A stretch of DNA of 64,000 nucleotides from a virus (Duplodnaviria > Heunggongvirae > Uroviricota > Caudoviricetes), in IMG/VR virus record IMGVR_UViG_3300005527_000046, positions 1 through 64,000 of that record. The stretch is one strand, 5' to 3'. The translations under genes and the position numbers were made by a program. Positions 5,218-52,000 of this stretch are shown here, one piece after another. Position 1 is the stretch's first letter, and the number at the start of each line of letters is the position of its first letter. The notes under the pieces were generated by a model. The model searched no databases, was not told the DNA's origin, and was given only the letters and a program-made list of their open reading frames with translations.

Positions 5218-5253
5218 TTTAACTATATTACTAATATTAATTTAGTTATTCTT

Positions 5254-6815: not shown

Positions 6816-6844
6816 TTGACAAGTGTTTATTATTAATATATAAT
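6816..6844 (+). promoter_or_regulatory. sigma70-like promoter TTGACA-17-TATAAT upstream of the tRNA at 6862
   Basis: TTGACA 6816-6821, 17-nt spacer, TATAAT 6839-6844. Confidence 0.5.
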
Positions 6845-6861
6845 AAACACTATAAATATAA

Positions 6862-6998: not shown

Positions 6999-7450
6999 TT
7001 GCTATTAAAACAATAGCAAACAAACAACTAACTATAAAGGAGGTAACTGTGTTACTAGATATTATAATTGGTTAAAACAAATAGTAGTGGTGGAAAGATA
7101 TACACTCATATCATGCGTTAGGTTGTGGTCCTAAAGAAGCAGTAAAATGAAAGATGATTGACAAGTGTACATAGTTAATTAGATCGCATGTGGTATGGAT
7201 TGGGCACAAGTATAGGGTTAAATTCCCTACCTACTATTTCTCTTAAACATGTAGTAATAGATATACAAATATATATATATATGATTTTATAGAAGCTTCT
7301 ATGAGTATGGCTGACTATAACATTGAGTATTATACTATTAACTCTCATAGAGTATAATGCAGATTCAATAAGAAAGTGTTAACTATACCATATTTAGTCC
7401 TCTTTCTTATATATCCCTTTGTATATTACTACATGTTTATTTTTCTACAA

Positions 7451-7523
7451 TCTGGAAACGTCTAACGGTCTGACAGCACACTTTGACTGTGTACAATTGG
7501 AGGTTCAAATCCTTCTTCCAGAG
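7451..7523 (+). tRNA. tRNA-Gln (anticodon UUG)
   Basis: Acceptor TCTGGAA/TTCCAGA, D-stem GTC/GAC, anticodon stem GCACA/TGTGT with loop CTTTGAC, T-arm GGAGG-TTCAAAT-CCTTC, discriminator G. Confidence 0.7.
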
Positions 7524-7581
7524 TAGTTATTTATATATAACAAGGAGGTTATTATGTCAGATATGGAATATTAATAAAACT

Positions 7582-7815
7582 ATGATAAAAGTAGATCTTA
7601 AATTTAATAAAGAGAGTGACGGTCAACATAGTTATATACTATCTTTTACTTCTGATAAGAATAAAGATAAATATGCTGACATTGAGTTTGTTAATGATGG
7701 TGAAATATTAACAGGTAAAACAGATAGGATTAATCCTTCTGAAATTAAAACTATTACAACAGAATCTTTGTTTGATGTATTAGAAGATTTAATTAAATTT
7801 ATGAATAAAGATTAA
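7582..7815 (+). CDS. hypothetical protein (ORF-track start 7483 trimmed to the first ATG downstream of tRNA-Gln)
   Basis: ORF track 7483..7815 overlaps tRNA-Gln; AAGGAGG at 7543-7549 upstream; ATG at 7582. Confidence 0.45.
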   Translation: MIKVDLKFNKESDGQHSYILSFTSDKNKDKYADIEFVNDGEILTGKTDRINPSEIKTITTESLFDVLEDLIKFMNKD

Positions 7816-8060
7816 TGAAATTAAAGTATTTTTTTATTCTCTTTATCCGACTCTTTATAGTAGTCGGATTTTTAATGACTATTATTTATTTGTTAGCCCT
7901 TGCAACTAAATTGATAATAGGTAGTAATTTAATGATTATTGCTGGCATATGTTTATATGTTGTATGTGTAGGGTTGATAGTTATCTTTTTAGAGGTAGCT
8001 AAAGACTTTTGGGTATTCTTGTGTAAATTTATTAGGCGGATGTTTAACTTGTATGATTAA
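7815..8060 (+). CDS. small integral membrane protein (two predicted TM helices)
   Basis: Hydrophobic composition; ATGA overlap with upstream gene. Confidence 0.5.
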   Translation: MKLKYFFILFIRLFIVVGFLMTIIYLLALATKLIIGSNLMIIAGICLYVVCVGLIVIFLEVAKDFWVFLCKFIRRMFNLYD

Positions 8061-8916
8061 TAAAAAAGTAGTTATTCCTTTTTTTGCTGGTCTTGTTGGA
8101 GTTGTTAGTGTTGCTTGTGGTTCAGTTCCTGAACCTGGAGAAACAGTATTAAAAGTATATAAAGCTGGTGATAATGCTGGGTTTGAAAAAGCAGAAATTG
8201 TTACTGGAAACTATGGAAATGACTTGAATGTAGTATATTACAAAATTAATAATAAGATTGTTAATTATGTTTATACTAATAGTATGACAGAAGGTAGAGC
8301 AGCAGATGAATCTATTAAATTTAGAACATCTGATGGTTTTGTAATGAGTTCTAATATAGGCATCTCTTATATTATTGTAGATCCTAAAAAGTTTCTATCT
8401 GTGCAGAAGATGGAAGATGAAAGCTTAACATTAGGGCCTCTATATATCCTACTTAGAGATAAAGTAAATAGTATTGGTAATACTTATTCCTTGAATGATC
8501 TAATTGCTATTCCTGGTCAAACTAATAAGCTTAATAACACTTCAAAAACTCTTGCTGATTTCCAAGCAAATGTTCTAAAACAATTGAATGAAGAAACAGC
8601 TAAATATGGTGTTAAGGTACTTAGTGTTACTTTTGTAAATGGTTTTACTCCTCCTAAAGAAATTGCTGAGCAGGTTCTAAATAGTCAAATGCAGCTTATT
8701 GAGACTCAAAAACAGACTAGCCTTTCTCAAACTAAAGCAACTCAGTATGAAAGTGAATTGAGGGCTGCTAATGCTAAACTTCAACTAGCAAAGATTGAGG
8801 CGGAAACAAGAAAGCTTGATTCAGTTGGTGTAACTAATGAATATGTAACTCTGCAAGTCATTGCTCTTCTTAAAGAGAAGTGGAATGGCAGCTTTGTTAT
8901 TATTGATGGTAAGTAA
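8053..8916 (+). CDS. SPFH/band-7-like lipoprotein
   Basis: Lipoprotein-type signal FAGLVGVVSVAC; segment IKFRTSDGFVMSSNIGISYIIVDPKKFL resembles the SPFH core; C-terminal coiled coil. Confidence 0.45.
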   Translation: MINKKVVIPFFAGLVGVVSVACGSVPEPGETVLKVYKAGDNAGFEKAEIVTGNYGNDLNVVYYKINNKIVNYVYTNSMTEGRAADESIKFRTSDGFVMSSNIGISYIIVDPKKFLSVQKMEDESLTLGPLYILLRDKVNSIGNTYSLNDLIAIPGQTNKLNNTSKTLADFQANVLKQLNEETAKYGVKVLSVTFVNGFTPPKEIAEQVLNSQMQLIETQKQTSLSQTKATQYESELRAANAKLQLAKIEAETRKLDSVGVTNEYVTLQVIALLKEKWNGSFVIIDGK

Positions 8917-8972
8917 TTAGTTTAATATTAACTCTGTTAGTATATAATTAACAGAGTTAATATTATAATAAT

Positions 8973-9182
8973 ATGATTGATACTATTGCTTCAAGTGAAG
9001 AATATGGATACATATATAAAAGAATTAGAATTACAAATATAAGCTCTTTACCTCTTACTATATCTTTTAAATATAATATAGAAGTTGAAAAGAAAAAGGT
9101 TAAAAACTTATTAGCCAATAGACATGAATACAAAGCAAGTAGGACTGATTTAGATATATATGGAAACCAAATATTTCATTGA
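8973..9182 (+). CDS. hypothetical protein
   Basis: ORF track. Confidence 0.35.
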   Translation: MIDTIASSEEYGYIYKRIRITNISSLPLTISFKYNIEVEKKKVKNLLANRHEYKASRTDLDIYGNQIFH

Positions 9183-22050: not shown

Positions 22051-24261
22051 ATGTCTAAAAAATTATCATTTGAATCATTTGCATCATTGATTAGAGAACA
22101 GTTTGCTCTAATGTGTAAGACTGGTAAATTGTTTGTATCATCTGTTAGTGGTGATGCTTTATGGAATTTATACTTAAAGTCATTTGCACCAGAAGATGAT
22201 CCAGTATTTAGAGATCCAAATAGTTCTAGTAACAATTGCAATAGAGATCATCATTTTATTAAAACTTATGGCAATATTGTTGCCATAGATGATAACAATG
22301 AAATAGTTACAATGTTTGACATTGATGTTGAAGATAGTAGTTATCACAATTCTGTCTTTAAAGTTAGAAATGCTTTAAAAGGTGCATCTATTAGTAGCGT
22401 ATTTGCTATTCACTACGATGATCTTGTAAAGCAGCCTTATGAAAAGATTAAGAAGAATGCTGATACATTTCAACTTGGTTATAAGCTATCTACTAAACAG
22501 TACACACCAGAAGAAGTAGCTAAGTATGGTGTTGTTGTAGAGAATAAAGTATATACATTTTATCACTTTTATACTAACTTGCCTAAGCAGTATGTACTTA
22601 CTGGTAATGAGTCTATTGGTACTTATCTAAGTAAGAGGAACAGCACTCATCAAGTGTTTGTTAAGGGTTTATCTATTCCACTTGAAACGCTGCAAGTTGT
22701 ATCAGAACTAATGGCACAAGGCTCCCTATTAAGGGCTGATTTGTATAAGTACAAAGTAGATGAGTTTATTAATATTAAACAAGAGTATGACAGCTTAGAA
22801 GGTTCTACTTTAAATAAGGATAACTGGACTTGGAAGAGGTTTAGTGATATTCCTTTTGCTGGCTTTGCTAATGAGTTAGTTGGTACAACTTGTCTTGATC
22901 TTGCAGAGGGTAAAGACATTAATGTTGTGCAGAAGGAGTTTAACTTTAGAGTTGATCCTGCTAATCATATGAAAGCAAAGGTTGCTGTAACTGAAAGACA
23001 GAAGCAAGATGCTGCTAATAAGATTGTTGAGTTGGGTTATGAAGATTCATTTAAGAGGCGCTTTGCTACATTAGAAGATGCTCTTAATGGTAGTATCAAT
23101 GAAGTAAGTCATATTAATATTAGTAAGAAGAAGGCTCCAGCTTCTAACTTATTTGCTAATGTTAAAACTGTTAATAGTGGCACCTTATCTAGACACAAGA
23201 AGGCTGAATTTGATGCTATAGAGACTGTTGACATTCAAACATTCATTGATAGTATATTACCTAATAGTAAGTCTATTGCAATCTTCTTAGAAAATGGCTT
23301 TGGCAATAATCTAGTAACACTAACAACTGCAATTGATCCTACTTGTAAGAATCCTTTTAAATGGAAGGATAATATGTTCAGTTGGACTTATAATGGTAAC
23401 TTAGCTGGTAGAAGTAACTTAACTCAAGCAGTTATTAGTAAAGGTGGTAGAGTTGATGGTGTTTTTAGGTTTACTCATAGTTGGAATGAACTAGAACCTA
23501 ATGATAGTCTTATGGATTTGCATGTATTTATGCCTGGTAATAGGGGCCCTTCTGCTAAAGTCTGTGATAACTATGGGGATTCTACTAATAGAGTTGGTTG
23601 GAATAGAAGAAATGATCCTACAAGTGGTGGTGTGCAAGATGTAGACTATACTTCTGCTGCTCCTGCTGGCTATATCCCTGTTGAGAATATTACATTTCCT
23701 TCTATGGATAAACTAAAAGATGGAAAGTATAAATGTAAGATTCATAACTGGAGTAAGAGAAGAAGCTATGGTAGAGGTAAAGCTGAGATTGCATTTAATG
23801 ATAAGTTGTATGAATACATTTATCCTGCTACTGGTCATAAAGAATGGGTTGATGTTGCTACTGTTACTCTAAGTAATAGTCAATGGTCAATTGAGCATCA
23901 CTTAGAACCAGTTGCATCTAGCTCTAAAACTATGTGGGGTCTTGATTCTAATCAATTCCACAAAGTAAATCTAATCTCACTATCACCTAACTATTGGGGT
24001 GAAAATAGGGTAGGTATTAAGCATTACTTCTTCTTTTTAGATGGGTGTCATTCAGATAGTCCAATGAGATCCTTTCATATTGAAAACTTGAATGGTGAGC
24101 TTCTAGCACATAGAAAAGTGTTAGAGATTTATGGTATGACTGATAAGTTGGAGCCAACTACTAAACAGTTAGCAGGATTAGGCTTTACTGATGATAGTAA
24201 AGAAACTCTTATTGTTAAAGTTGAAGGCAGCTTTAAAAGGACTGTAAGAGTTAAGTTTTAA
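22051..24261 (+). CDS. large hypothetical protein (736 aa)
   Basis: ORF track; no recognisable catalytic motif found by eye. Confidence 0.55.
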   Translation: MSKKLSFESFASLIREQFALMCKTGKLFVSSVSGDALWNLYLKSFAPEDDPVFRDPNSSSNNCNRDHHFIKTYGNIVAIDDNNEIVTMFDIDVEDSSYHNSVFKVRNALKGASISSVFAIHYDDLVKQPYEKIKKNADTFQLGYKLSTKQYTPEEVAKYGVVVENKVYTFYHFYTNLPKQYVLTGNESIGTYLSKRNSTHQVFVKGLSIPLETLQVVSELMAQGSLLRADLYKYKVDEFINIKQEYDSLEGSTLNKDNWTWKRFSDIPFAGFANELVGTTCLDLAEGKDINVVQKEFNFRVDPANHMKAKVAVTERQKQDAANKIVELGYEDSFKRRFATLEDALNGSINEVSHINISKKKAPASNLFANVKTVNSGTLSRHKKAEFDAIETVDIQTFIDSILPNSKSIAIFLENGFGNNLVTLTTAIDPTCKNPFKWKDNMFSWTYNGNLAGRSNLTQAVISKGGRVDGVFRFTHSWNELEPNDSLMDLHVFMPGNRGPSAKVCDNYGDSTNRVGWNRRNDPTSGGVQDVDYTSAAPAGYIPVENITFPSMDKLKDGKYKCKIHNWSKRRSYGRGKAEIAFNDKLYEYIYPATGHKEWVDVATVTLSNSQWSIEHHLEPVASSSKTMWGLDSNQFHKVNLISLSPNYWGENRVGIKHYFFFLDGCHSDSPMRSFHIENLNGELLAHRKVLEIYGMTDKLEPTTKQLAGLGFTDDSKETLIVKVEGSFKRTVRVKF

Positions 24262-24375: not shown

Positions 24376-24804
24376 ATGTCTGATTTATTTGTACAAGGTA
24401 TTAGAAGTAAGGTAAGATTTCAACTTCCTCAAGGTGAGCTTACAATGGAACAACTGTTTGATCTTAAGCCTATTAAGAGTAGAACAGAGAAGAATGAAGA
24501 TGGCACTCCTAAAGTAATTGATGTTCTTGCTGATTATGAAGCTGAACTACAAAATGAAGTAGAATCTTTTGCTAAGATTACTAGAAGAGGTTCTAGTACT
24601 AGAAGTGCTGCCCAAAATGCAACTCAATTGAAGCTATCAATTGTCACTGCTATTCTTGATATTAGAGACAGTGAAGCAGAAGAAGCTGCTACTAAAGCTG
24701 CTGTTAGAGCACATAATGCAGAGATTGATGAACAACTTGCTGAGCTTGATAGAAAAGACAGAGCTAATCTTACCAGAGAACAATTGCTTGCCATGAGAAA
24801 GTAA
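24376..24804 (+). CDS. hypothetical protein
   Basis: ORF track; followed by a terminator hairpin. Confidence 0.5.
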   Translation: MSDLFVQGIRSKVRFQLPQGELTMEQLFDLKPIKSRTEKNEDGTPKVIDVLADYEAELQNEVESFAKITRRGSSTRSAAQNATQLKLSIVTAILDIRDSEAEEAATKAAVRAHNAEIDEQLAELDRKDRANLTREQLLAMRK

Positions 24805-24831
24805 TAGTACTTTCTAATCTATATAAACAAT

Positions 24832-24870
24832 AAGGACTAAACTGTAATATACTTAGTCCTTTTGTTTATT
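24832..24870 (+). terminator. rho-independent terminator (stem AAGGACTAA/TTAGTCCTT, 12-nt loop, T-rich tail)
   Basis: 9-bp perfect stem followed by TTGTTTATT. Confidence 0.5.
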
Positions 24871-24903
24871 ATTTAATAATGTTGTTATAAGAAGAGTTTT
24901 AAT

Positions 24904-24975
24904 ATGACCAAGCCATTTAGTATTGTATGTGAAGATTATACTGTTTATATGATGGTGGGACCATCAAATTGTGGT
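24904..24975 (+). CDS. pnkp: Pnkp exon 1: N-terminal 24 codons ending in the first half of the kinase P-loop (MTKPFSIVCEDYTVYMMVGPSNCG)
   Basis: Short ORF ending in G-P-S-N-C-G; joining to 26289 recreates GPSNCGKS (Walker A GxxxxGK[ST]); exon ends in T as required for group I 5' splice sites. Confidence 0.5.
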
Positions 24976-26288
24976 AGTACAAATTTTGCCTAGTTTTATA
25001 TGTTAATTTTAGAGTAAACTACTTTTATAAATTATTATAAAAGTAGTTATGACATACTCTCAAGAATTAAGAAATATAGCTTTAGAAATGTATCAATCCG
25101 GAATTAGTTCAAGCAATATAGCTAATGAATTAAATATAAATCCTAGAACCGTTTTAAACTGGATACCTAAAGAACTTATAAGATCTATAATACCTCCTTA
25201 TTCTAAAGAAGTAATAGATAAAGTTTTAGATATGTATAATTCAGGCTTAAGTGCTAATAATATAGCAATTAAATTAGGATTAAATAAAAAAACCGTTCTA
25301 AGATGGATTCCTAAAAACCTTAAAAGATCTGTAAAGGATTATGATTTAGGTTATGAAAGAAACCATAACTTTTTTAGAGATATTAAATCTGAACAACAAG
25401 CTTATTTTTTAGGCTTAATAACCGCAGATGGAAGTATATCTAAAACAGGAACATTAGGCTTAGAATTAAAGCATTCTGATGGTTATTTAATAGAAAAATT
25501 TAGAGATCTTTTATCTCCTAATGCTAAAATAAGTTTTTCATCTAGAACTAAAGTATATAAAGGAAATTCTATAATAAGTGAAACTAGCTATCTTAAAATC
25601 ACTTCTAGACATTATTTAGAAGATTTAGCAAGATATGATATTGTTCCTAATAAAACTTATCTAGATATAAGATTACCTATTTTTGATTCAAATTTAATGA
25701 ATCATTATATAAGAGGTTTATTTGATGGAGATGGAAGTGTTTATACTCGTAGTAAATATAAATCTTTATTAACTGTTACTTTTGTTGGTGGAGAGCTTTT
25801 ATTAAATCAAGTAAAAGACTATTTAAAATTAAATTTAGATCTAAAAGGAAATCTTAATATAAGAGCAAGACAAACTAATTGTTTTGATTTTTCTTTAACT
25901 ACTCAAGAAGATATACATAAGTTTAAAGAATACATCTATAAAGATGCAACTATATTTCTTAAAAGAAAACATGCAAAATTTTATAATGAAATTATTGCCA
26001 CATAAGTCTGTGAATTGCTGGGATAACTTGAAGGTTAATTAACTACAACATAATTAGTAATAATAAGTGTGAATGTTTAAAAATAATTAATTATAAGTCA
26101 ATCAGCAGCCAAGTGTCCTAGTAATAGGATAAAGGTTCAACGCATAGTACATGGAGTCCTATTTATATAGGATAGTAAAGTACCAAGAGTGCAGACTACT
26201 AGTTAAACTTAACTGGTAAAGATATATGCTGGACTACTAAGTGATTAGTAGAACTAAGGGATAAAAAGCCTTTAGGTTAACAAAATTG
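24976..26288 (+). mobile_element. candidate group I intron carrying a LAGLIDADG homing-endonuclease ORF, inserted in the Pnkp P-loop codons
   Basis: Last exon base U, last intron base G (26288); GC-rich structured 3' part (26006-26288) with GACUA-type and AAGAUAUA-type core-like elements; internal ORF 25049..26005. Confidence 0.5.
25049..26005 (+). CDS. LAGLIDADG homing endonuclease with two N-terminal HTH repeats
   Basis: Two LAGLIDADG motifs (YFLGLITADGSI and IRGLFDGDGSVY); duplicated N-terminal module (SxISSSNIANELNINPRTVLNWIPK / LSANNIAIKLGLNKKTVLRWIPK). Confidence 0.75.
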   Translation: MTYSQELRNIALEMYQSGISSSNIANELNINPRTVLNWIPKELIRSIIPPYSKEVIDKVLDMYNSGLSANNIAIKLGLNKKTVLRWIPKNLKRSVKDYDLGYERNHNFFRDIKSEQQAYFLGLITADGSISKTGTLGLELKHSDGYLIEKFRDLLSPNAKISFSSRTKVYKGNSIISETSYLKITSRHYLEDLARYDIVPNKTYLDIRLPIFDSNLMNHYIRGLFDGDGSVYTRSKYKSLLTVTFVGGELLLNQVKDYLKLNLDLKGNLNIRARQTNCFDFSLTTQEDIHKFKEYIYKDATIFLKRKHAKFYNEIIAT

Positions 26289-28628
26289 AAGAGTTTCATT
26301 TCAAAAGAATTAGAGTTACAACTAAAAGCTAATAATACTGATGTTACTATTCTTTCATCTGATGATATTAGAAGAGAATTATTAGATGATTATAGTATTA
26401 ATAAATATGATCCAAGAATGCTTGAAGTGTCTTCTCAAGCTTTTAATTTGTTATATGCTAAGCTTAGAAATTACATCAGTTATCCAGTAAATAAGAAGTT
26501 TGTAATCATTGATAATACTGGTTTGAACCAACAATTTAGAACTGACATTCTTAACATCTGTAGAGATAATAATTATAAGGTTGTCTGTATCTTGTTTGAT
26601 TATAAGAACGGAGAAGACTGGTTTGTTAATGATGGTGGTGATAAGTTTGTTATTCAAAAGCATTTAGACAGATTGCAGAAACATGTGTTTAAAGAACTGA
26701 AAGCTAAAGACTATCACAAAGTTATAAGAGTCACAGATAGGATTGAAAGTGTTAATGTTACTTATATACAAGATAAGAATAACTTACTTGTAGATGGTAA
26801 TAACTACACTGTCATTGGTGATGTTCATGGTTGTGTTGATGAGTTAAAACAGCTTATTAGTAACATTAAAGATGAACATAATGTGCCAATCTTGATGGGT
26901 GATTGGATTGATAGTAAACTTGGCAGCGTAAGTTGTAATGCAGCTATTATTGATTACTTATTAGATAATCCTCAAATACTACTTGTTAAAGGTAATCATG
27001 AAGAGAACTTATATAAGAATTTAAATGACTTAACACGGGAGAAATTAGATAATAAATTCTTTAATAGTAGACAATTAATCTATGACTTTCCAGAGTATAA
27101 GACTAAGTTTATAGAACTTTATAATAGAAGTTATACTAGTATTAGAGGTCAAGGCTTTATTGTTACTCATGCTCCTTGTAAGAGTAAGTACTTGTTAACA
27201 AGTCTTAATAAGATGACTAACTTATATTATACGACTGAAGAGAAGTGTGATCTTATTAATGAGATATATACTGACAAGTATTATAATAGCTGCTGGCCTC
27301 TTCACTTATATGGTCATCTAACATTTGATAGACCTGTTAAGACTAGATTTAGTATTGGTCTTGACACTGGTGTTGGTTATGGTGGTGTGTTAACTGGTTA
27401 TAATGTTGCTACTAGAAAGTTTATTATTGTTCAATCTACCTTAGATAATAGTCTTAAACAACTTGATAATCTTACTAAGTTTAAGTATCCTGTACAAGAC
27501 TTAGAAGTTAAGTTAGATGATGATGATACTAGAAAGTTAAGTAGTTTTATCAGAAACAAGGTGCCTTATATCAGTGGAACTATGTGTCCTGCTGATAAGA
27601 CTGAAACAACCTTAGAAGATATTAAAACTGTGTTAGCCTACTATGCTTCTACTGGACAAACACAAGTGTTAATACAACCTAAATACATGGGTAGTAGAGC
27701 ACAAGTATTATTAACTAGAAATAGTTATGAGGTGTTTACTAGAAGTGGCTTTAAGTTAAAACATACACCTGAATTAGACACTGCTATACAAGCACTAGAA
27801 GATAATGTATCCAATGAGTTAATGACTTGGCTTAATAGTTTAGGGCCTTATACTTCAACATTATTAGATTGTGAGTTGATGCCTTGGTCTTATCTTGGTA
27901 AAGGTTTAATTGAGGATACATTTGAATCTTATTATTATAGTCATAAGTTACACATTGAAGCTATGATTAAACATGGTTTTTATACTGATTTAGAATCTTA
28001 TAAGATTAGTGATGATTATGTTAATAAGGTGCCATCAGCAAACAAACAAGTTGGTAATCTTAATCAATGGAGAAACACTAGTAATCTAGATAATCTAAAT
28101 ATCTTTGGCACTGAACTAGATAAGTATGCCTCAACTGAAGCACCTTACTTTGTTCCTTTTAATATTCTTAAAGTTGAGTCTGAAGATAAAATTCTTTATA
28201 GTAATAGTGAGTTTAATAGATTTAATAACTTTGAGTTGTTAAGCTTATTACAAACACCATTACATGTGGTTGATGTTAATGATTTAACAGAAGGGATAAA
28301 AGTACAAAACTTATATAGTCACCTCGAAGGTATTGTTGTTAAACCTTACTACAATATTGAAGGCCAAGCACCATATATTAAAGTTAGAAACATAGATTAT
28401 TTAAGATTAGTTTATGGTCATGACTATACTTCTAAGTTGGATAAGTTCATTGATAAGAAAAACATTAAAGGTAAACTTAGGGTGTCTATTAATGAATGGC
28501 AACTTGGTAATGCTTTATTAGATATGCATTCCTCTGAGTTTGTTGAATCTAATAAAGAGTATGTTAATACTTTAATTAGACTAATGTTTGAGTTGAAAAA
28601 AGAACAAGGACTAGATCCAAAATTATAA
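26289..28628 (+). CDS. pnkp: Pnkp exon 2: polynucleotide kinase - metallophosphoesterase phosphatase - ligase-like RNA repair enzyme (ORF track 26286..28628 with apparent TTG start)
   Basis: N-terminus aligns with T4 Pnk after the P-loop (KSFISKEL...SSDDIRREL); central GDVHGC / GDWIDS / GNHE metallophosphatase motifs; C-terminal KYMGSRA nucleotidyltransferase-like motif; no ATG start and no P-loop in this ORF. Confidence 0.65.
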   Translation, partial: KSFISKELELQLKANNTDVTILSSDDIRRELLDDYSINKYDPRMLEVSSQAFNLLYAKLRNYISYPVNKKFVIIDNTGLNQQFRTDILNICRDNNYKVVCILFDYKNGEDWFVNDGGDKFVIQKHLDRLQKHVFKELKAKDYHKVIRVTDRIESVNVTYIQDKNNLLVDGNNYTVIGDVHGCVDELKQLISNIKDEHNVPILMGDWIDSKLGSVSCNAAIIDYLLDNPQILLVKGNHEENLYKNLNDLTREKLDNKFFNSRQLIYDFPEYKTKFIELYNRSYTSIRGQGFIVTHAPCKSKYLLTSLNKMTNLYYTTEEKCDLINEIYTDKYYNSCWPLHLYGHLTFDRPVKTRFSIGLDTGVGYGGVLTGYNVATRKFIIVQSTLDNSLKQLDNLTKFKYPVQDLEVKLDDDDTRKLSSFIRNKVPYISGTMCPADKTETTLEDIKTVLAYYASTGQTQVLIQPKYMGSRAQVLLTRNSYEVFTRSGFKLKHTPELDTAIQALEDNVSNELMTWLNSLGPYTSTLLDCELMPWSYLGKGLIEDTFESYYYSHKLHIEAMIKHGFYTDLESYKISDDYVNKVPSANKQVGNLNQWRNTSNLDNLNIFGTELDKYASTEAPYFVPFNILKVESEDKILYSNSEFNRFNNFELLSLLQTPLHVVDVNDLTEGIKVQNLYSHLEGIVVKPYYNIEGQAPYIKVRNIDYLRLVYGHDYTSKLDKFIDKKNIKGKLRVSINEWQLGNALLDMHSSEFVESNKEYVNTLIRLMFELKKEQGLDPKL

Positions 28629-28662
28629 ATAATAATAATAATAATAAAGGAGAAATAACAAT

Positions 28663-28878
28663 ATGCCTTTCTGGAAAGCAAGAGTACTTGATCATGATGA
28701 TTAAGGTAGAGAGTCTGAATCTGTATACTATGTATCAGAACCAGATGAATTAGAAGCTTTACTTACTACATATGATGTTCATAGTATGAGTGATGATTTG
28801 CATGAAGGGACAGATGATGTTCCTAATGTTGATTTAAAAGAGATTAATGATGATACTGCTAGTAAATCAGGCGGCTAG
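28663..28878 (+). CDS. small acidic protein whose frame from an RBS-preceded ATG contains an in-frame TAA at 28702-28704 (MPFWKARVLDHDD*GRESE...SGG)
   Basis: AAAGGAG at 28646-28652; 13 codons, TAA, then 58 open in-frame codons to TAG with no early alternative start. Confidence 0.35.
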
Positions 28879-29199
28879 ATTAGTAACTTCTTTGGTAGGC
28901 AATAAATAAACTATTACAAGTTAGTTGTAGCAATATAATTAACTTGTAATAGCTATAATAAGGTATTAATTAATATGTATTTAATTGTGGCTGGTTTAAG
29001 TGATTTAGATGATATTGATACTGCTAAGTATGCAGATATAAACACCAATAAAAAAGGCTTCTGTTGCTATTAGGTATGCTCAAATAATGACAAGTAGAAC
29101 TGATGAAGGTACTTATGATAATGCTTTTGTTTATGAGTTAAAGAGTAATAGTATTAAATTGTTATCAGCAAGTTATAGACGTAAAGAGAATGGTTTAAT

Positions 29200-30408
29200 A
29201 TGATAATTGACGTTAATTCTAGCAACTTTAACATGTCTTACATTCTTAATAAGAATCCTAGTAGTGGCTTGCTTATTAGAGATTGTAGAAAGGGTTTTGT
29301 AGTGGGTAAGTATGTTAATCCTTTAACATATATGGCTGTCTTTGAAGAAGGTACTGGACAGGATTCCTTTGAGAAAGAAGGTAATTATTTAGTTTATAGA
29401 GGTTATTGTTCTGCTGAAGCTGCTCTTACAGTAATAACAGCATTGTTTGATTGTATTAAAAAAGATAGTAATAATAAGTATGAGGAAGGACCTTCTTTAA
29501 ATACTATTACTATTAAATGTTTAGATATTGATGTTAAACATTTATCTATATTTAACACTGAAAGCTTTAACATTACAGAGTATACAATAGCTGATAATTG
29601 TAATTTAGTACAATTAAATGTTACTAATAATAGTAGTTTAATTGATGTTTTAAGGTATACAGCTTTAATTCTATTCATGCAACTTGTTAAGGATAATGTG
29701 AGTTATCTAACACTTGATCAAGTTAATGTTTATGCTAACATCATCAAAAAAAATGACAACATTCCTTTTATTGTTAGACATAGATTTAGAGGCATTCTTG
29801 AAGATAATATGTCTAAAAAAGTAGTACCTTTATTAAATAATGATTCAATTAAACTATCTAATATTGGCAGAAATGAACAACAAAGATTTGCATTTGTAAG
29901 TCAACACATTTTATTTAAAAATAGTGTTTTAGATATTGGTTGTGGTCCTGGAAAATATATTAAAGTGTCTAAAGCTGCAAAATATGTTGGTGTAGATATA
30001 GATGAAAAGTGTATTGAAAAAGCTAAAACTAAGGCTAGCCATTTGAATGTAGATGCTTCCTTTTATACTGATTGGGCATTTGCTTTAGAACAATTAACAG
30101 AGCCTACAACAGTCCTTTTAATAGAGTTTATTGAACATATTGAAAAGGATGTAGCAATGCTTATATTAGAAAAACTTTGTTTATGTGAACAGGTTAAGCA
30201 AATACTTATTAGTACTCCTAATAAAGATTTTAATAAGCACTTTAATATTGCAGATGATGGTCTTAGGTTTGAAGACCATATCTATGAAATGACAGAAGAG
30301 GAGTTTAAAAGACTTCCTGGAAAAGATATAACTTGGGGAGATTCAGTTGATGGATGTCCTATGACTTTGTATAAAGATTTAAGATTAGAGGTAAGTATTC
30401 TTGACTAG
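29200..30408 (+). CDS. hen1: Hen1-like RNA 3'-terminal 2'-O-methyltransferase (MTase domain in C-terminal half)
   Basis: SAM motif I VLDIGCGPGKY; Hen1-specific metal-binding motifs LLIEFIEHIEKD (E-x-x-E-H) and RFEDHIYEMTEEEF (H-x-F-E-x-T-x-x-E-F); located immediately downstream of Pnkp as in bacterial Pnkp-Hen1 operons. Confidence 0.7.
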   Translation: MIIDVNSSNFNMSYILNKNPSSGLLIRDCRKGFVVGKYVNPLTYMAVFEEGTGQDSFEKEGNYLVYRGYCSAEAALTVITALFDCIKKDSNNKYEEGPSLNTITIKCLDIDVKHLSIFNTESFNITEYTIADNCNLVQLNVTNNSSLIDVLRYTALILFMQLVKDNVSYLTLDQVNVYANIIKKNDNIPFIVRHRFRGILEDNMSKKVVPLLNNDSIKLSNIGRNEQQRFAFVSQHILFKNSVLDIGCGPGKYIKVSKAAKYVGVDIDEKCIEKAKTKASHLNVDASFYTDWAFALEQLTEPTTVLLIEFIEHIEKDVAMLILEKLCLCEQVKQILISTPNKDFNKHFNIADDGLRFEDHIYEMTEEEFKRLPGKDITWGDSVDGCPMTLYKDLRLEVSILD

Positions 30409-31573
30409 TTTATTAGCATATCAACAACCAGATGGCAGTATTGATTTTAGAAGTAATGCTGCTACTTGTCCTAAGGTAAAAGCCGGCGTTTATAGAGCTT
30501 TAAATTCTATGGACAGAGGAATTTATTTAAGTCCTACAACTGAATTTAAATATCTAGATGAATACTTTCTATTAGATGAATTTGAAGAGTTAGTCTTAGA
30601 AAGTTTTAAACAGTCTAATAAGAGTTTAGCTGTTATATATCTTGGTCTTAAGGGTAGTGGAAAAACTAAAAGGGCGCATAAACTGGCCCTAGACTCAGGA
30701 ATGCCAGTGCTAATTATTGATAACTTAGATATTATTAATAGTCAACGTTGGAATGATATTGTTGGCAGTGATACATTAAATAACTGGATCATCTTTGTGG
30801 ATGAGTATGAAAAGAAGTTAGACAATGATAATTCAGTTGCCTTCTTAAATTGGCTAGACGGGTCAGTTAGTACTAAGCAATTGTTTATATTGATTGGCAA
30901 TGAACAAGCTAAGACTAAGTATAGTGATCCTCTTTTAGATAGACTCTCAAGGGTCTTATGGAAGAAAGAATTTGGCTCATTAACCAATGAGCATGTTGAA
31001 ACATTAGTAAATAAACTCTCCAAGAGAGAAGAAAAGTCTGAGTTATTAGATCTGCTTAATAATATTCCTGTGTTGTCTATGGATAATACGATGCAGATTA
31101 TTAGAATAACTAATATGTTTCCAGATAGGTCTATTGAGTCTTTACTTACTAAACTAAATATTAGCTTTAATAGTGTTGAAGAGTTTACATTTGTAGATGA
31201 GTTTTATAAACCTTTAACATATGGTGAAGATCATATTGGACTAACTATTACTAGAAGTGGTCCTATACTTAATGTTGCAAGAATTATTAGATTCTATATA
31301 GAATCTGATGATATTATAGAAAGGTTTAACCCTGAAGATAGTGATAAAAAGATCTATAGAATAAAGGTTGAAGCTCCTGCAAAGACTATTAAACTTACTA
31401 AAGTTAGTAGATTTATATATAAATTTGAAGCTCCTTATAGTGTTTGTTATAATTATACAGAGTGGGATGAAGATGCGTGGCAGCCTTCTGACAAAACTAT
31501 GACTGTATTCTTATATAAAACAATGGCCTGGAATTTATTAGCTAATCCTAATAGTAATACTTACTATATGTAG
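30401..31573 (+). CDS. P-loop NTPase (Walker A GLKGSGKTK, Walker B IIFVDEYE), translationally coupled to hen1
   Basis: Walker motifs; 8-nt overlap with upstream gene. Confidence 0.5.
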   Translation: MTSLLAYQQPDGSIDFRSNAATCPKVKAGVYRALNSMDRGIYLSPTTEFKYLDEYFLLDEFEELVLESFKQSNKSLAVIYLGLKGSGKTKRAHKLALDSGMPVLIIDNLDIINSQRWNDIVGSDTLNNWIIFVDEYEKKLDNDNSVAFLNWLDGSVSTKQLFILIGNEQAKTKYSDPLLDRLSRVLWKKEFGSLTNEHVETLVNKLSKREEKSELLDLLNNIPVLSMDNTMQIIRITNMFPDRSIESLLTKLNISFNSVEEFTFVDEFYKPLTYGEDHIGLTITRSGPILNVARIIRFYIESDDIIERFNPEDSDKKIYRIKVEAPAKTIKLTKVSRFIYKFEAPYSVCYNYTEWDEDAWQPSDKTMTVFLYKTMAWNLLANPNSNTYYM

Positions 31574-31578
31574 TAAAT

Positions 31579-31827
31579 ATGATTCAAAGACTTCCTAAGA
31601 TTGGTGAGGTTATAAAGATATATTGGTCTTCTCCTGAAGGAGAACAAAGAGCTAGAGTAATTAGTATTGTTCCTTATACAGGAAGATATTCTAATCACTT
31701 TACTCATATTATTAGACTAACTTCTAATACTAATAGAGGTTGGACTGAAATTGCTTGGAACAAAGATAAGCCTATTTGTGAGTGGTTTATACATAAAAAA
31801 ATGTATAAGCATGTTATGTGTTTCTAG
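31579..31827 (+). CDS. hypothetical protein
   Basis: ORF track. Confidence 0.4.
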   Translation: MIQRLPKIGEVIKIYWSSPEGEQRARVISIVPYTGRYSNHFTHIIRLTSNTNRGWTEIAWNKDKPICEWFIHKKMYKHVMCF

Positions 31828-32014
31828 CTTTTATTATGATCAAGCTTATTGGGTGTATAAATATTTAAATAATAGAAATATACCTTATAAGCTTGATTGT
31901 AATATTCATCTTGATGATGGCTTTCAATTGTTTGTACCAGAAGAATTTTTGTACAAGATTAGAAATGATTTGTGGTATATTGAAAGGCGGTTAGTGGAGT
32001 TAAATGATGGTTAA
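31751..32014 (+). CDS. hypothetical protein
   Basis: ORF track. Confidence 0.35.
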   Translation: MLGTKISLFVSGLYIKKCISMLCVSSFYYDQAYWVYKYLNNRNIPYKLDCNIHLDDGFQLFVPEEFLYKIRNDLWYIERRLVELNDG

Positions 32015-34537: not shown

Positions 34538-34894
34538 ATGAATAATAATATAAAAGATTTACAAACGCTACAAGATAATAATGTTGATGTTAATAGCATC
34601 AAATTTTTATATAAAAGAACTAGTACTGGGGCTATTCAAATATGGGGCCAAGAGTTGCTACAAAATAAATATAGAAGTGTTATTGGTCAATTAGAAGGTA
34701 AGTTACAGGTTAGTGATTGGACCACTGCTAAGCCTAAGAACATTGGTAAAAAGAATGAAAGATTGGGGCCAGAACAAGCTAAATCTGAAGTAGATAATAA
34801 CTATACTAAGAAGTTAAAAGAAGGTTACTTTGAGTTAACAGAAGATGGTGCTCCTAGATTTGGCAAGGTTAAAGAGTTAGATAGGAAGTGTTAA
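34538..34894 (+). CDS. hypothetical protein
   Basis: ORF track. Confidence 0.45.
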   Translation: MNNNIKDLQTLQDNNVDVNSIKFLYKRTSTGAIQIWGQELLQNKYRSVIGQLEGKLQVSDWTTAKPKNIGKKNERLGPEQAKSEVDNNYTKKLKEGYFELTEDGAPRFGKVKELDRKC

Positions 34895-46036: not shown

Positions 46037-49000
46037 TTAGGTATTAATAATTCCATCAATAACTTTAGTTCCTCTCTTTATATTGAACTGTTGTAATGCA
46101 ATTTGTTCACTATCTCTAGAACTTGTTTGTGTAAATTCTAAGGTTGTTTGACCTTTATCTGTTTTTCCTTTAGTAACCTTTGTTGCTGCTTGAATGTTTG
46201 GTGTTCCATCATTTATAAGTTGAATGTGTGGATTAGGTACTATATGACTTCCAACTACATTTAATGCTAAGTTTTTCTTAGTATTAATCTCATTAACATC
46301 ATTAGCCATTTGACCCATCTTAGTACTAACCTCTCCTAACTTAACAATTGCTTCTCTTGTTATAGCGTTTATCTCTGTTGATCCTATAATAGGAGCAGAG
46401 GTTATCTTTCTATTTTCAAGTTCTACAACTCTATTGATCTGACCTTCCCATGCTTGTATTTGTAATCTTTCTGTAACAGACATATATTTAGATACTAATG
46501 CATGATTTAACTTGTCATCCATTCTTGTGTTCCAAAATTGTTTACCTGTTACTAGTTGATTATAAGCTTTACCTCTAATAGCAAATGCAAAGTCCTGAGA
46601 TGGATCAACAGATCCTGGTCCATATCCTTCAGCAGTAGCAGCATATCCAGTCATAGGAGCATCAAAAGATGTAACAAATCTACCAGCAGTCTTTCTGCCA
46701 GTTGGATCATCTAAGGTGTCTATTTGTGCCATCCATTCTTGTTTCATTGCATCATTTACTGTGCCTTGAAATAGAGGATTTCTATAGTCTTTATCCCTAT
46801 ACTTTGTATCATTATATATTTGATTGGCAGGTTTAAATAGATAAGATCCTGGCGCTCCAAACATCTGTGTTGGTAAGTTACTAAGATTAGATGCAAAGTC
46901 ATCTGCTGTCTCAGGACTGTTAAGTATCCAAACAATTTGTACTGCAGTTAATACTAAAGAAGCAACTAAACCCCAAGGTCCTGCTGCTACTCCAGAAATA
47001 GCTTTTAATCCAGCTCCTGCAAATTTTGCACCAGTTACTAATCCTTTAATTGCCATTCCTTGTGCTGTCTTTTGTATTGCAGCGTTTCTTATTGCTGTAC
47101 TAGCACTCTGTATAAGACCTACCTTAGCAACTTGTTCTGTTATCTTAGAAGTGATAGTCTTTGCAACTATAGTTTGTCCAATCTTATTGGCTATAAATGG
47201 AGTTACTAATGTACTACTTAAAGAATCTAATGCCTGTAAACTAGCACCTTCTAATCTGTTATTCTTAGAGTCTAATGAGTGTCCTAAACCAACTCCAAAT
47301 ATTAAAGCACCAATAGCTGCAACTCCCGCATTAATTAGATTGCCTGTCTTTAAGTAGTTAAGAGTTCCTCCAATACCTAAAGCTAAACCTCCAACAATGT
47401 TTATAACTCCACTTTGGTTTTGAATATTTCTTATTACTTGTCTTCCTCCTTGATAAAAGTCATCCATCTTAGAAGTAATATATCCACCCAACTCAGGACT
47501 TAAAGAAGATAGGGATGATCCAGCTAAGTCAAATACACTTCTACCAGCTAAGGTTAAACCAGCTAATCCTATAGAAACTCCCCAAGTTTTACTTGCTTTG
47601 AATAATGCTATAGATGATGCAGCTAAAGTAATACCTACAGCACCAGCAGTAATTCTTCCTCCAGTTCCATTATTCTTAAATAGTAAATCATAGCCAAAGA
47701 AACCAGCAGCTAGTCCTCCTATTCCAGGAATAATACTCTTCTGAATTGACTGATTCATTAATAATGTACCAAAGAATAAAGCCCCCCATATATTGTCAAA
47801 GCTTTCTTTGGCCATTTCTTCTCTGGCCATTTCTTTTTCTCTTTCTCCTGTTTTACTAGAAGCTACACTAGCTGCAGCTCTAAATGTTAATAAGTTAGTA
47901 CTAACAAACATAGCCATTTGATAGCCATTCATTAGTACTGTTCCCATTCTAGATAAACCCTCTAGAAATGTTAAACCTGCAGTAGTCTGTAATGCTTTAG
48001 GTGGCACTCCTACTGGCATACTTCCCTGAAGTCCAGATCTAGTATTTTGTTTTATATCAAGTTCAATAGCTTTTGCAACTTCTTCTTGTAACTCTTTAGT
48101 GGGGACATTAAACATACCTCCACCATATTTTCTTACATTGTCTAATACTTCTTTAGATGCATCTGTTGCTTCTAAAGTCATTCTGGTTATTAGATCTCTG
48201 TTAGTTCCTCCACTAACTATATTTAATAATCTATCAAAGACAGCAGTTAAACCAGTTCTCTTTGTTGAAATGATTGTGGTTAATCTATCTTTAATCTGTT
48301 CTCTAAGATGTAACTTGTTATTAAATCTTTGATCTACTGATACTTTATTAACATAATCTTCATCAATTATTGCTGTGCTGTTTAACTCCCTTCTAACAGA
48401 ATTAGTATAAATATTGTCTGCATCTTGTATAAAAGCTGCTTTAATTCTTTCATCAATAACATCATAGTAACTATCAATAACAATATCAAATTTGGCAGCA
48501 TATACTTCTGTCATAAGATCAATAGAATGTCTCATATTAGGGCTTCTATCTTTGCCAAATATATTGAAACCTCCTCCAAATTTTCCTGCCGCTTTAGATA
48601 TGAATTTATCAGCTTTAGCTTCTAATAAATCATCATAAGTAAAGCCTTTATAATATTTATCTACAAAGTCTGCTTTAGCTATAGGAGTTTTAGATTCAGC
48701 ATTATAAGCATCATATTGACCCTCTAAATAAGCATCAAGAACTTGCTTATTAGTATAATCATCTAATAAGTGTTCTGTTATTTTATGTGTTGTATGATTA
48801 TAAGTTATAGTTTCATCTAGGGTTTCTGAGAACATTACAGATTTAAATTCTCTAGCATGAGTTCTAGCTATTCTGTCATCTCTAGTAGATAATCTAGTTG
48901 TTTGACTTGGTGCTGATCTAGTTTCTAACTCATCATAAAAGTCATTTAATCTTGTTATTTGTTGAGTGTGTGCTTGTCCATAGTTCTTTGAATAGTCTCT

Positions 49001-52000
49001 ATAAGCACTATCAAACTTCATAGATAAAGCTCCACTTAATTCATTGATTTGACTTGTATATTTCTTAGCTTGATGATCTGTTAAGCCTTCAGCTATTGCA
49101 AATACAACTTGTGTTCTTCTTAGTAATAAGAATTTACCTGCCGCCGCTTTTAATTCTTCTGCTTCATATAAATGTTTAGAGAACCACTTTCCTTCATCAA
49201 AGTACTTATGTTGTTGTTCCCATAATAATGTATTGTCTTTTGTTACTTGACCTTGACTGGCTTTAGTGGCAGCAACAACTGATATAGCAGCAGTAACTAA
49301 ACCAAGAGAACCTATTCCAACTGCCATTATAGGCAGCCACATAAATGGTGGAAGAGCTTGAGTTAATCCTTGCAATGAAGATGTGTCTCTAACTTTTGTT
49401 AGAAATTCTCCAGCTCTTTCAAAGAAGCTTTTATTTGAATCATATTGATTTGCTGTTGATTGAATTGCAATTCCTTGCATCTCCATAAAAGCATTTTCAT
49501 TATCACTGTCTTGTATAGACATTTTAGCTGCTATAAAAGGATTAGAGTTAGATGCTAAACCACCTATTTGTTTTACAGTTATTTCACCTCCCATAAAGAA
49601 ATTTTGATTTATCTCTCCTAATCCAGTCTGACTTCCATTGCTTGATATATCTTTTAATGCTTTATAGAACTTACCTTGCATATCTGGTGAAGCTATGTTC
49701 ATATTATTCATTAAGGTATATAAAGCTATGTTTACATTAGTACCATAAGATAATGCTTGTAGTCTCTTATATCTTTGGTTGAGAGACATTGCTAAAGCTT
49801 TATTAGTAGTCATAGCTTCTAATGTATATTTATTAGGAGATGTAAACTTAATTCTATCTTTACCTGATCTTGTTGGTTGGCTATATACAGCAGTAATAAT
49901 GTTAGAAGCAAACTGTCTTAGTTGTGCTTGATTGTGTCCAGCAGCATCATCAATTCCTCTTAAATTAGCAATAATATTCTGTGCTAAGAAACCTTTCTTA
50001 GCTAATTCTTGTAGTCCAAATACAGATGACATACTATACATTGCAGATGAGAAATCTTGTGATGCTGATTGTATTTGGAAATAGTCTCTAAGTCTTACAT
50101 CACTATCATCTGGTCTTATTGTTATACCACCAACAGCCACACCAATAAAGGTATTTGGTGAATTTACAATTATTAAATTACTCAATTGTTTTAGTGAGTT
50201 GTTTATTGCTCCTTTAGTTGTACTGTCTGGATTTATTAAGAATTCACCTTTACTATTATGTAAATTAGGTCCTACTAAACCTTTAGCAATGTCATAAGAA
50301 TGGGCTCTATCATACTTTGTTTGTAGTTTAACAAAGTCTACTACACCTTTTCTAAAGTTTGCCCAAGGTGTGTTGCTGTCTTCATCTGCTCCTATTAAAG
50401 CATCTTGAAAGTCCTTATAACCCATGCCTTGAGATGCCCAATTTAAGCCATGAAATGTTAGTCCAAGTAAGGCTGTAGTTCCGCCTAATCTAGCCCATCT
50501 TTCTATATGAACTCTATTACTAGCAGATCTATTTATACTCATTCCTTTTAACACTGCTGAGGCTGGTTGATTGTTAGCAGGATTACTAAACTTATCTAAC
50601 TCAGCTAATACTGCTGAAGCTTGGTTATTCTTTATAATTGAGTTTAAGTCTGTACCAGCACTTATATCTAAGGACTGTAAACCTTTATAGACATTATTAG
50701 ATCTATTACTTGTTATTTGTTTAATGTTTGAATATGGATCACTTACATTAAAAGCATTTTTGAATATCTTTCCTTGTGCATCTTCTACTGCTTGAATAAT
50801 AGGAGAGTTGCCCATTCCTTCTTCTATTATTATTTGTACTTCTCTTGCTTCCATGTTTAACTTATATGTTTCATACTTTAAGCTTAGAGATTGTATAAAG
50901 CCAATATTCTTCTTTCCTATTGGCACTTGTTGTAGTCTTTCTACAACAGTTAATCTATTCCTAAATCTCTCAACAATTTGTTCAGGATTAATATCTGCAA
51001 AGATTAAACTCTTAGGATTAAAGGATGTAACTCCTGCTGTTAATGCGAATAAGGTTGCACCAAAAGCAACAGTTGTCATTCTTCTTGTATTGTCATATTT
51101 ATCTTCTGTTTGTTTTGTTAAATCTCCAAATGCTATTTCTGGATTTACTTTGCCTGATGTTGGATCTGTTATAAAATGATTCCACAAAGCTCCAACAGCT
51201 AGTAAGCCTAATCCTTTTCCTACTTTATTTTCTAATGTTCCTGTTTGGAATACAGCACTTTGTTTTACAAAGCCTCCAAACTTGCCTAATGTATTTCTAT
51301 ATAAACCTTTAAGACTGTTATTAGAATACATCCAAGCAACTAAAGGATCTATCTTTGTTTTGTCAAATCTTGCACTTGTAATATTTAATTCTGACTCTAA
51401 CATTGCTAGTCTTCTAGAGGCTGCTATTGTACCTTTAGCATAACTAATACCTCCTATAAGAGCAGCTCCTGCCATAATAGAAGCACCTCTTAAAGCAAAG
51501 TTTCCATCTTTATCTTCTTTCTTATTTGTAAAAGGTTGAGATAATGTATTAATAACACTATATAAGTGATTACCAATAGCACCTCCCATAAAGGCACTAA
51601 ATACAACAGGCACAAATGATGTTGATCTTAATCTTAAGCCTGGCATCCTAAAGTCACCAGTTGTTAGATTAAGAGACTGAGCAGCTATATAGAAAGGCAA
51701 TGTAGCAATCCCTAAGAACTTATCTCTGGCAGCCCTTGTTGATTGTGTTATTAAAGATTCAGTGGCAACAACAGTTCCAGTTGATTTAAGTATTTGATGG
51801 TTTCTTCCCCATATTCTATTCCTTACTAAGGTGTTAGATACTCCTATACCAACTCCACTCCATAAGGCTACTTGGCTATAGATGTTATAATAATCTTGTA
51901 AGCTTAAGGAGTCCTTATTCCCTTCATTAAGTATTAGACCAGTTCCTAGATAACCAGTTTTAATGGTTACATTATCAGCACTCTTAGCATTCATTGCAAA

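Follow-up and report, generated by a model that had tools for sequence, protein, structure and literature searches.

A probable Pnkp-Hen1 RNA repair module in a phage, its Pnkp gene split by a predicted mobile group I intron

Pnkp and Hen1 genes of the cassette

The window analysed here is a stretch of 64,000 nucleotides (nt) of a Caudoviricetes virus, positions 1 to 64,000 of the IMG/VR record IMGVR_UViG_3300005527_000046. Its 24.9-31.6 kb region carries genes for the predicted RNA repair proteins Pnkp and Hen1, and the Pnkp gene is divided into two exons by what appears to be a group I intron. A mechanical list of open reading frames (ORFs) in this region contains a 29-codon ORF (24904..24993) and ORFs of 318 (25049..26005), 780 (26286..28628), 402 (29200..30408), and 390 (30401..31573) amino acids (aa). 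The exons, the intervening sequence, and Hen1 are arranged as follows, with a slash marking the junction wherever a split sequence is written.

24904..24975, plus strand: Pnkp exon 1, 24 codons (MTKPFSIVCEDYTVYMMVGPSNCG), with the first half of Walker A at its end
24976..26288, plus strand: predicted group I intron of 1,313 nt, subgroup IA-like with P7.1/P7.2, splitting Walker A at GPSNCG/KS
25049..26005, plus strand: intron-encoded homing endonuclease of 318 aa; two helix-turn-helix domains at the N-terminus, followed by a LAGLIDADG part with two motifs
26005..26288, plus strand: predicted intron ribozyme core (P3, P4, P5, P6/P6a, P7, P7.1, P7.2, P8, P9, P9.1), 3' of the endonuclease ORF
26289..28628, plus strand: Pnkp exon 2, encoding the remaining kinase, the phosphatase (Pfam match about 26808..27323), and the ligase/adenylyltransferase (about 27558..28529)
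29200..30408, plus strand: Hen1, 402 aa, predicted N-terminal ligase-activating domain and C-terminal Mn-dependent RNA 3'-terminal 2'-O-methyltransferase

Joining 24904..24975 to 26289..28628 gives an in-frame protein of 803 aa with the full Walker A motif GPSNCG/KS. Unspliced, the 29-codon ORF reads MTKPFSIVCEDYTVYMMVGPSNCG-STNFA before read-through meets a TAG stop at 24991, and the 780-aa ORF begins with (L)KSFISKELE. The P-loop would be complete only once the intron is removed, as the exon-2 ORF alone lacks its first half. The initial annotation took 26289..28628 as Pnkp by itself and left the 1,313-nt intron, upstream of which the first half of the P-loop lies, unmentioned. In Pfam, the spliced protein matches three families, all above their gathering scores: the AAA_33 kinase at residues 14-128 (6e-10), Metallophos at residues 198-369 (2.7e-11), and PNKP_ligase (PF16542) at residues 448-771 (2.8e-25). 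A kinase, a calcineurin-type metallophosphatase, and a Pnkp-type ligase therefore follow one another in a single polypeptide, in the order that defines bacterial Pnkp.

A Pnkp family profile was built from 36 homologues and compared with the Protein Data Bank (PDB). It matched CthPnk (4gp6, 3e-12) over the kinase, CthPnkp (4j6o, 3e-24) over the phosphatase, and both CthPnkp (3ty8, 6e-42) and C. gingivalis Rnl (6e-104) over the ligase. The three-domain enzyme initially proposed from the motifs GDVHGC, GDWIDS, GNHE, and KYMGSRA, all of which are present, is thus matched in every domain by Pfam and by the PDB profile comparison, and the profile searches suggested as its check returned significant Pfam matches for the Pnkp kinase, phosphatase, and ligase as well as for Hen1. 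The kinase had been likened to T4 Pnk; its closest solved relative is instead Clostridium thermocellum Pnk, and T4 Pnk is not among the 60 matches listed. Residues predicted to be catalytic are invariant in the 36 sequences. Specifically, these are G24 K25 and S48 D49 R52 of the kinase (P-loop, Asp, and Arg), the metal ligands D202 H204, D229, N260 H261, H318, and H367 of the phosphatase, and K489 (KxxG), E553, E704, K709, and K722 R724 of the ligase. Profile matches and predicted active sites confirm a well-preserved bacterial-type three-domain Pnkp with its catalytic residues all kept. The allele of one relative (P0026, contig L023) has DCKLMPW in place of DCELMPW in ligase motif III; the replacement of the otherwise invariant E553 suggests that the ligase there may be inactive.

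The ligase activity of bacterial Pnkp depends on the N-terminal domain of Hen1, and the two proteins form a heterotetramer. The predicted Hen1 of the window matches Hen1_N (PF22032, 1.9e-27) and Methyltransf_23/25 in Pfam, and contains the motifs VLDIGCGPG, IEFIEH, and RFEDHIYEMTEEEF. Of the solved structures, C. gingivalis Hen1 (4xrp_C, 6e-21) matches it best and aligns over the full length, followed by the C. thermocellum Hen1 methyltransferase (3jwg, 5e-11). Neither the S-adenosylmethionine (SAM) site D245 G247 D266 nor the metal site E309 E312 H313 H360 varies across 18 homologues with identities of 24-93%. By these matches, the protein is a full bacterial-type Hen1 with predicted SAM and E-E-H-H metal sites intact. 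Its identification by motif in the initial annotation is upheld by Hen1_N and by the SAM and metal sites; its placement as the gene next to Pnkp is not, as a 571-nt gap lies between them.

Hen1 stands beside a Pnkp homologue in all nine relatives of the window's phage clade in which its position could be seen (L005-L008, L023, and L025-L028); the contig of a tenth, L024, stops short of the expected Hen1 position. The same neighbourhood is found in 27 of the 30 IMG/VR loci with full-length relatives of Pnkp, and in Enterococcus gilvus. In L025 (1000..6571), a 49%-identical relative, an extra Rnl2-like RNA ligase (PF09414) is located just upstream of Pnkp, an unrelated 235-aa gene lies between Pnkp and Hen1, and a resolvase and a TnpB-type gene follow 2-4 kb downstream.

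The intervening sequence in the P-loop codons

The exon-intron boundaries read ...TGTGGT/AGTAC...AAATTG/AAGAGT. The 5' splice site comes directly after a U, the intron ends in G, and joining the exons restores the reading frame. Exon ligation after U 24975 and after G 26288 would join GGU to AAG. Protein sequence alone also permits a junction one base leftward, and the boundaries 24975/24976 and 26288/26289 are favoured because of the U/G rule.

Intron-less homologues delimit the same junction from the protein side. A search of 5.8 billion proteins found about ten of them (P0006, P0007, P0008, P0012, P0014, and P0021-P0024 among them), 60-86% identical to the window Pnkp and aligned without a gap across the junction, for example MTKPFNIVCEDYTVYITIGCSNSGKSYIAKELELQLKANNTDVTILSSDDIRREL. 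The intron-less site in contig L005 is CAGTCTGGCAAAAGCTGG, and P0024 carries the NCG-KS allele. Identical copies of the window Pnkp gene (P0001-P0005) occur on contigs of up to 228 kb, where they are called as 780-aa exon-2 products. Three further alleles bear the intron, and in each the called product starts at the same residue.

P0020, contig L024: 79% identity to the window Pnkp
P0025, contig L007: 59% identity to the window Pnkp
P0026, contig L023: 60% identity to the window Pnkp

All three contigs have the same insert at the same site with a LAGLIDADG ORF; exon 1 ends in ...TGTGGT and the insert in ...TTG. Exon 1 and its start codon are intact in four of four intron-bearing lineages (P0001, P0020, P0025, and P0026). 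The intron RNAs of the window and L007 are 93% identical, whereas the Pnkp proteins share 59%, a pattern characteristic of mobile elements.

The 3' part of the insert resembles a group I ribozyme. Rfam RF00028 (Intron_gpI) aligns P3-P9 on 25995..26300 with 31.4 bits (E=1.8e-6), and Rfam gives no group I match on the whole window at the gathering threshold or on 24850..26400 at E up to 10. We drew the P3-P9.1 structure, including the P7 pseudoknot, by hand and scored its 56 pairs in four intron copies. All 224 cells are standard pairs, as compared with 25-45% in slid controls, and none of 500 shuffles was as good. Eight pairs changed on both sides, in P7, P7.1, P8, P9, and P9.1, with modest statistics given that the set is only four fairly close sequences. 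P7, for instance, is GCAUA/UAUGC in the window, GCCUA/UAGGC in L007, and GACUA/UAGUC in the intron of L016, a more distant copy that was left out of the covariation count because MAFFT misaligned it. An alternative P1 with the splice site in its loop is not conserved in L023 and was dropped.

The endonuclease ORF is in a frame unlike that of either exon. Its product matches LAGLIDADG_3 (PF14528, 1.4e-14, two stretches) and HTH_7 (1.6e-8) in Pfam, as well as the endonuclease family phrog_4645 (1.1e-45). Both motifs of a single-chain LAGLIDADG enzyme, LGLITADGS and IRGLFDGDGS, are present in the translation. The L023 intron endonuclease is shorter (272 aa), with no helix-turn-helix family match listed.

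Boundaries, pairing, and patchy distribution taken together, 24976..26288 is shown by sequence analysis to be a group I intron, predicted to be mobile and self-splicing. Group I introns self-splice with a guanosine cofactor. The intron would be a selfish passenger homing into conserved P-loop codons. In this it resembles the T4 td, nrdB, and nrdD/sunY introns, which likewise have an IA-like core with P7.1/P7.2 and a peripheral endonuclease ORF, and are inserted at a highly conserved catalytic-site codon with a patchy occurrence among close relatives. Different from those introns, its host gene encodes an RNA repair enzyme and its site is the G/K codon boundary of Walker A. In a limited check of literature titles and abstracts, none described a group I intron with a homing endonuclease in a phage polynucleotide kinase gene.

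Related elements are found elsewhere. At 2864..3109, L016 (IMGVR_UViG_3300021121_000001) has a group I intron that contains no ORF but is related to the window intron, sharing its P4/P6 core, P7.1, P9.1, and 3' end. Its host gene is a different one, encoding a P-loop ATPase (...GEAGLGKTSVVKQV...EIGD/LVGFPN...). The core word GTCAATCAGCAGCCAAGT also occurs in the viral contigs L012, L015, L018, and L020-L022.

Neighbouring genes and known systems

Two decayed genes lie between Pnkp and Hen1 and an ATPase gene lies after Hen1, while a DUF8224 protein and a tRNA cluster are located upstream of the cassette.

28663..28905, plus strand: decayed 80-aa gene, nonsense changes CAA>TAA at 28702 and TGG>TAG at 28877
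28975..29203, plus strand: decayed 75-aa gene, +1 frameshift from an extra A in an A-run at about 29050
30401..31573, plus strand: classical AAA+ ATPase, 390 aa, with a TTG start overlapping the Hen1 stop by 8 nt
22051..24261: DUF8224 / phrog_1735 protein, 736 aa, upstream of the cassette
4176..11396: tRNA cluster, seven genes by Rfam and four by ARAGORN

Over the 571 nt that separate Pnkp from Hen1, the window shares 97.6% identity with L005, which lacks the intron and in this stretch holds an 80-aa and a 75-aa gene; both are conserved in L007 as well. The decayed 80-aa gene is 97.5% identical to the intact L005 ORF and 53% to the L007 ORF. The 75-aa match is split over frames 1 and 2 in tblastn, and the intact L005 copy overlaps the start of Hen1. 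Three of the six differences from L005 in this stretch destroy the small genes, so that disruptions are strikingly enriched. Identical lesions recur in L009-L011 from three other samples, which indicates that they are real and that the small genes are dispensable. Recoding of the in-frame TAA and TAG was rejected, since the two stops replace different residues (Q and W) and a frameshift occurs alongside.

The ATPase matches PF00004 (29.6 bits, cut-off 21.2, 1.1e-6) and phrog_2376 (4.5e-30). It has a Walker A motif GLKGSGKT and a Walker B motif IIFVDEYE, with G85 K88 T89, D134 E135, N167 (sensor 1), and R181/R184 invariant, and its N-terminus is conserved from the TTG start that overlaps the Hen1 stop. 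The window's phage clade accounts for all 28 close homologues. The AlphaFold model is poor (predicted local distance difference test score 63.7) and finds only generic classical AAA proteins in Foldseek (Bcs1, spastin, and FtsH; template-modelling score about 0.25); a profile search of PDB sequences gave no match.

The window has a G+C content of 27-35%, with genes on the plus strand up to about 43 kb. The source is a large low-GC phage: the window holds homing endonucleases, a terminase-like gene, and families of phage polymerases and exonucleases, and related contigs are as long as 228-257 kb. Three of the tRNA genes appear only in the Rfam set (6897..6960, 9855..9938, and 9969..10031) and are short or low-scoring. 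The 'large tRNA repertoire' placed next to the cassette by the initial annotation shrinks to seven genes 13-20 kb upstream. An HNH endonuclease gene is located inside the tRNA cluster (4301..5032, minus strand). The DUF8224 / phrog_1735 family is common in phages (489 records), and the best isolate matches of the 736-aa protein are Cellulophaga phages (46% identity), which weakly suggests a host from Bacteroidota. An ORF of 3,428 aa on the minus strand (46037..56323) lies beside the terminase-like gene (57163..59349). Downstream of the cassette, 34538..34894 is the remnant of an ATP-dependent DNA ligase, in which residues 1-103 are joined to residues 402-422 of the intact 423-aa L005 ligase, the catalytic core having been deleted between two YFE(S/L) repeats. 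At the same position, L026 has a TnpB/IS605-type gene and then only a 69-aa ORF with a weak match to a DNA-ligase OB domain. A promoter scan found sites no more numerous than in shuffled sequence.

Among characterised systems, the cassette is most like the Pnkp-Hen1 of C. thermocellum and Anabaena variabilis in layout. Both have kinase, calcineurin-type phosphatase, and ligase in one chain and in the same order, both have a Hen1 partner with a ligase-activating N-domain and a metal-dependent 2'-O-methyltransferase, and all catalytic motifs are found in both. The window cassette differs in being phage-encoded and intron-split, and in the two decayed small genes that part Pnkp from Hen1. Among cellular proteins, those nearest to the window Pnkp come from Paenibacillus and Enterococcus, bear the name 'metallophosphoesterase', and are 30-34% identical to it; their genes stand in Hen1-Pnkp(-RlaP) order. 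In E. gilvus (L029, GCA_019731195.1), the operon order is Hen1-Pnkp-RlaP, the last being a PF10127 nucleotidyltransferase.

The C. gingivalis Pnkp1-Rnl-Hen1 heterohexamer (4XRP/4XRU; PMC4411300) supplies the closest solved ligase (5e-44) and full-length Hen1 (6e-21). That system has a separate Rnl and a T4-like Pnkp1 with a haloacid dehalogenase (HAD) phosphatase; in the window a kinase and a calcineurin-type phosphatase share one chain with the ligase, so that the three-protein arrangement is not the one found here. For the window ligase domain, the score is about 54 bits with CthPnkp and about 154 bits with C. gingivalis Rnl. The idea of a mosaic protein, with the healing half from Pnkp and the ligase of Rnl type, was considered and dropped, as full-length Pnkp proteins of Firmicutes match the ligase domain as well as Rnl does (about 150 bits).

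T4 Pnkp and Rnl1 reverse the anticodon-nuclease damage done by PrrC. Like them, the window cassette would be a phage-encoded healing-and-sealing system for cleaved tRNA. Unlike it, T4 has a HAD phosphatase, an Rnl1-type ligase, and no methyltransferase; hence a T4-repaired tRNA can be re-cut.

In cultured phages, Pnkp/Hen1 homologues were described in 2018 for Xanthomonas phage XacN1 (ORF197-199), which has many tRNA genes, and were read as tRNA repair (PMC5852040). Hen1 and a Pnkp-type ligase are found in five GenBank phages, namely XacN1, Vibrio phages RYC and sm033, and Stenotrophomonas phages CM1 and RAS14, so the initial annotation overstated the novelty. As in the window, Hen1 adjoins a Pnkp-type ligase in these phages. 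RYC and XacN1, the two that were scanned, have a split layout with a standalone ligase, and the XacN1 kinase is likewise encoded on its own. In RYC (L001 6137..8290, annotated 'polynucleotide kinase'), a standalone Pnkp-type ligase precedes a 717-aa fusion of a full Hen1, a T4-type kinase, and a HAD phosphatase; sm033 has the same layout. In RYC, two proteins hold what the Pnkp1-Rnl-Hen1 system divides among three. None of 50,697 GenBank phage records matches beyond the ligase half of the window Pnkp, and a megablast of 24376..31900 against these records gave no match. The window's intron and ATPase are found at none of the cultured-phage Pnkp/Hen1 loci. Full-length three-domain relatives of Pnkp occur in 30 IMG/VR contigs at 26-32% identity.

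Proposed role and alternatives

We consider it probable (roughly 80%) that the locus encodes a Pnkp-Hen1 RNA repair module of the phage and that a mobile group I intron interrupts its Pnkp gene. Once its transcript is spliced, Pnkp would form a complex with Hen1, as in the C. thermocellum/Anabaena and C. gingivalis systems. Its substrate would be an RNA, typically a tRNA, cut by a transesterifying ribonuclease that leaves a 2',3'-cyclic phosphate and a 5'-OH. The complex would remove the cyclic phosphate, phosphorylate the 5' end, and methylate the 2'-OH of the 3'-terminal nucleotide, whereupon the break would be sealed into a junction immune to re-cleavage by transesterifying nucleases. These steps follow the characterised biochemistry of Pnkp-Hen1 repair (PMC4411300; PMC3675462). 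By analogy with T4 Pnkp/Rnl1 and PrrC, the phage would use the cassette and its own tRNA genes to keep translation going when the host fires anticodon nucleases, and counter-defence against such nucleases is a reasonable inference.

Several points weigh against this assignment. In NCBIfam, Pnkp scores 155.9 bits against the equivalog model TIGR04075 (bacter_Pnkp), whose cut-off is 750, and Hen1 scores 53.9 bits, over the methyltransferase domain only, against TIGR04074 (bacter_Hen1), whose cut-off is 340. The kinase lid appears to lack the arginines of CthPnk. As for the intron, the RF00028 score of 31.4 is below the gathering score of 50 and is seen only when the search is narrowed to about 300 nt (the 306-nt core), P1 can be drawn only as 3-5 base pairs (GGU with GCC, GUC, or GCU), and in the P1/P2 region RNAalifold favours a different hairpin, in which the presumed guide sequence would be buried. 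The Paenibacillus and Enterococcus homologues of Pnkp also miss the TIGR04075 cut-off, with 185-193 bits, which is why the Enterococcus protein carries the NCBI name 'metallophosphoesterase'. Low NCBIfam scores shared by the phage proteins and their nearest cellular relatives point to a divergent Pnkp subfamily outside the equivalog model.

If the homing-endonuclease element had simply disrupted the P-loop, the Pnkp gene would be dead, and a kinase-less fragment or nothing would be made. Gene callers do give only the 780-aa exon-2 product without a complete P-loop, the Rfam score is sub-threshold, and three other genes nearby have decayed (the two small ORFs and the DNA ligase). We nevertheless judge a dead gene very improbable: exon 1 with its start codon has stayed intact in four intron-bearing lineages, the ribozyme core is 100% paired with compensatory changes, every catalytic residue in exon 2 is kept, and U(-1) and terminal-G boundaries leave an in-frame junction. 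A living cassette could still repair RNA for ends other than counter-defence, be it damage by the phage's own or rival phages' nucleases, the maturation or stabilising of phage tRNAs, or the protection of 3' ends from exonucleases by 2'-O-methylation. The best-studied phage precedent, T4 Pnkp and Rnl1 against PrrC, is counter-defence, and a jumbo-phage review regards tRNAs and RNA repair genes as means of countering the host when it attacks translation (PMC7824862), so that we hold these other roles to be unlikely, even though enzymology deduced from domains is silent on the source of the damage and the phage has tRNA genes of its own as well as several nuclease genes. Bacterial Pnkp-Hen1, thought to protect from exogenous ribotoxins and not to act against defence systems (PMC4411300), also speaks for them.

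The translationally coupled Walker A/B ATPase had initially been offered as a possible new component of the system. Its motifs and its 8-nt overlap with Hen1 are real, but the gene is absent at about 36 other Pnkp-Hen1 loci: none lies within 6-8 kb of Pnkp/Hen1 in the GenBank phages L001-L004 or in the 49%-identical relative L025, none near Pnkp/Hen1 at any of the 30 IMG/VR loci, and none in the Enterococcus operon. Within the clade, the ATPase follows Hen1 in each contig examined (L005, L007, L023, L026, L027, and L028), directly or nearly so and even at about 45% ATPase identity; the 8-nt overlap exists in three lineages, other neighbour genes come and go, and Walker A, Walker B, the sensor-1 Asn, and an Arg are invariant. 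These features would fit a clade-specific third subunit, perhaps together with the intergenic small ORFs, acting as a remodeller that frees cleaved tRNA from nuclease or ribosome for Pnkp-Hen1. However, adjacency carries little weight because the whole region of about 15 kb is syntenic across the clade, a 55-aa ORF separates the ATPase from Hen1 in L007, and both small ORFs are pseudogenes in the window phage. Relatives of phrog_2376, a family in 128 phage records, have unrelated neighbours in the three examined, and one stands between primase, resolvase, and Mre11 in the replication/recombination module of a crAss-like phage. A third subunit is hence quite improbable, and the ATPase is probably a clade-specific syntenic phage gene, not a repair component. 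We are strongly doubtful that it is a dedicated Pnkp-Hen1 motor pulling cleaved tRNA halves from an anticodon nuclease or from stalled ribosomes; if it were, the phage would have a three-component RNA repair machine without a bacterial counterpart.

Returning to the Pnkp-Hen1 module with its intron, the system itself is known, and the window is a well-preserved example rather than a new system. The gain is incremental, because the system is well characterised and phage homologues have already been noted. What stands out is the fused bacterial architecture in a phage, together with a homing group I intron in the P-loop codons. The intron causes automated annotation to truncate the Pnkp gene and to miss the kinase. 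The clade provides a clean, full-length phage Pnkp-Hen1 for testing, with natural intron-plus and intron-minus alleles, and suggests that homing elements also target the P-loop of an RNA repair kinase. Pnkp-Hen1 methylates the joint that it repairs; if the phage uses it as proposed, host anticodon nucleases could be permanently disarmed, which goes beyond the keeping pace achieved by T4.

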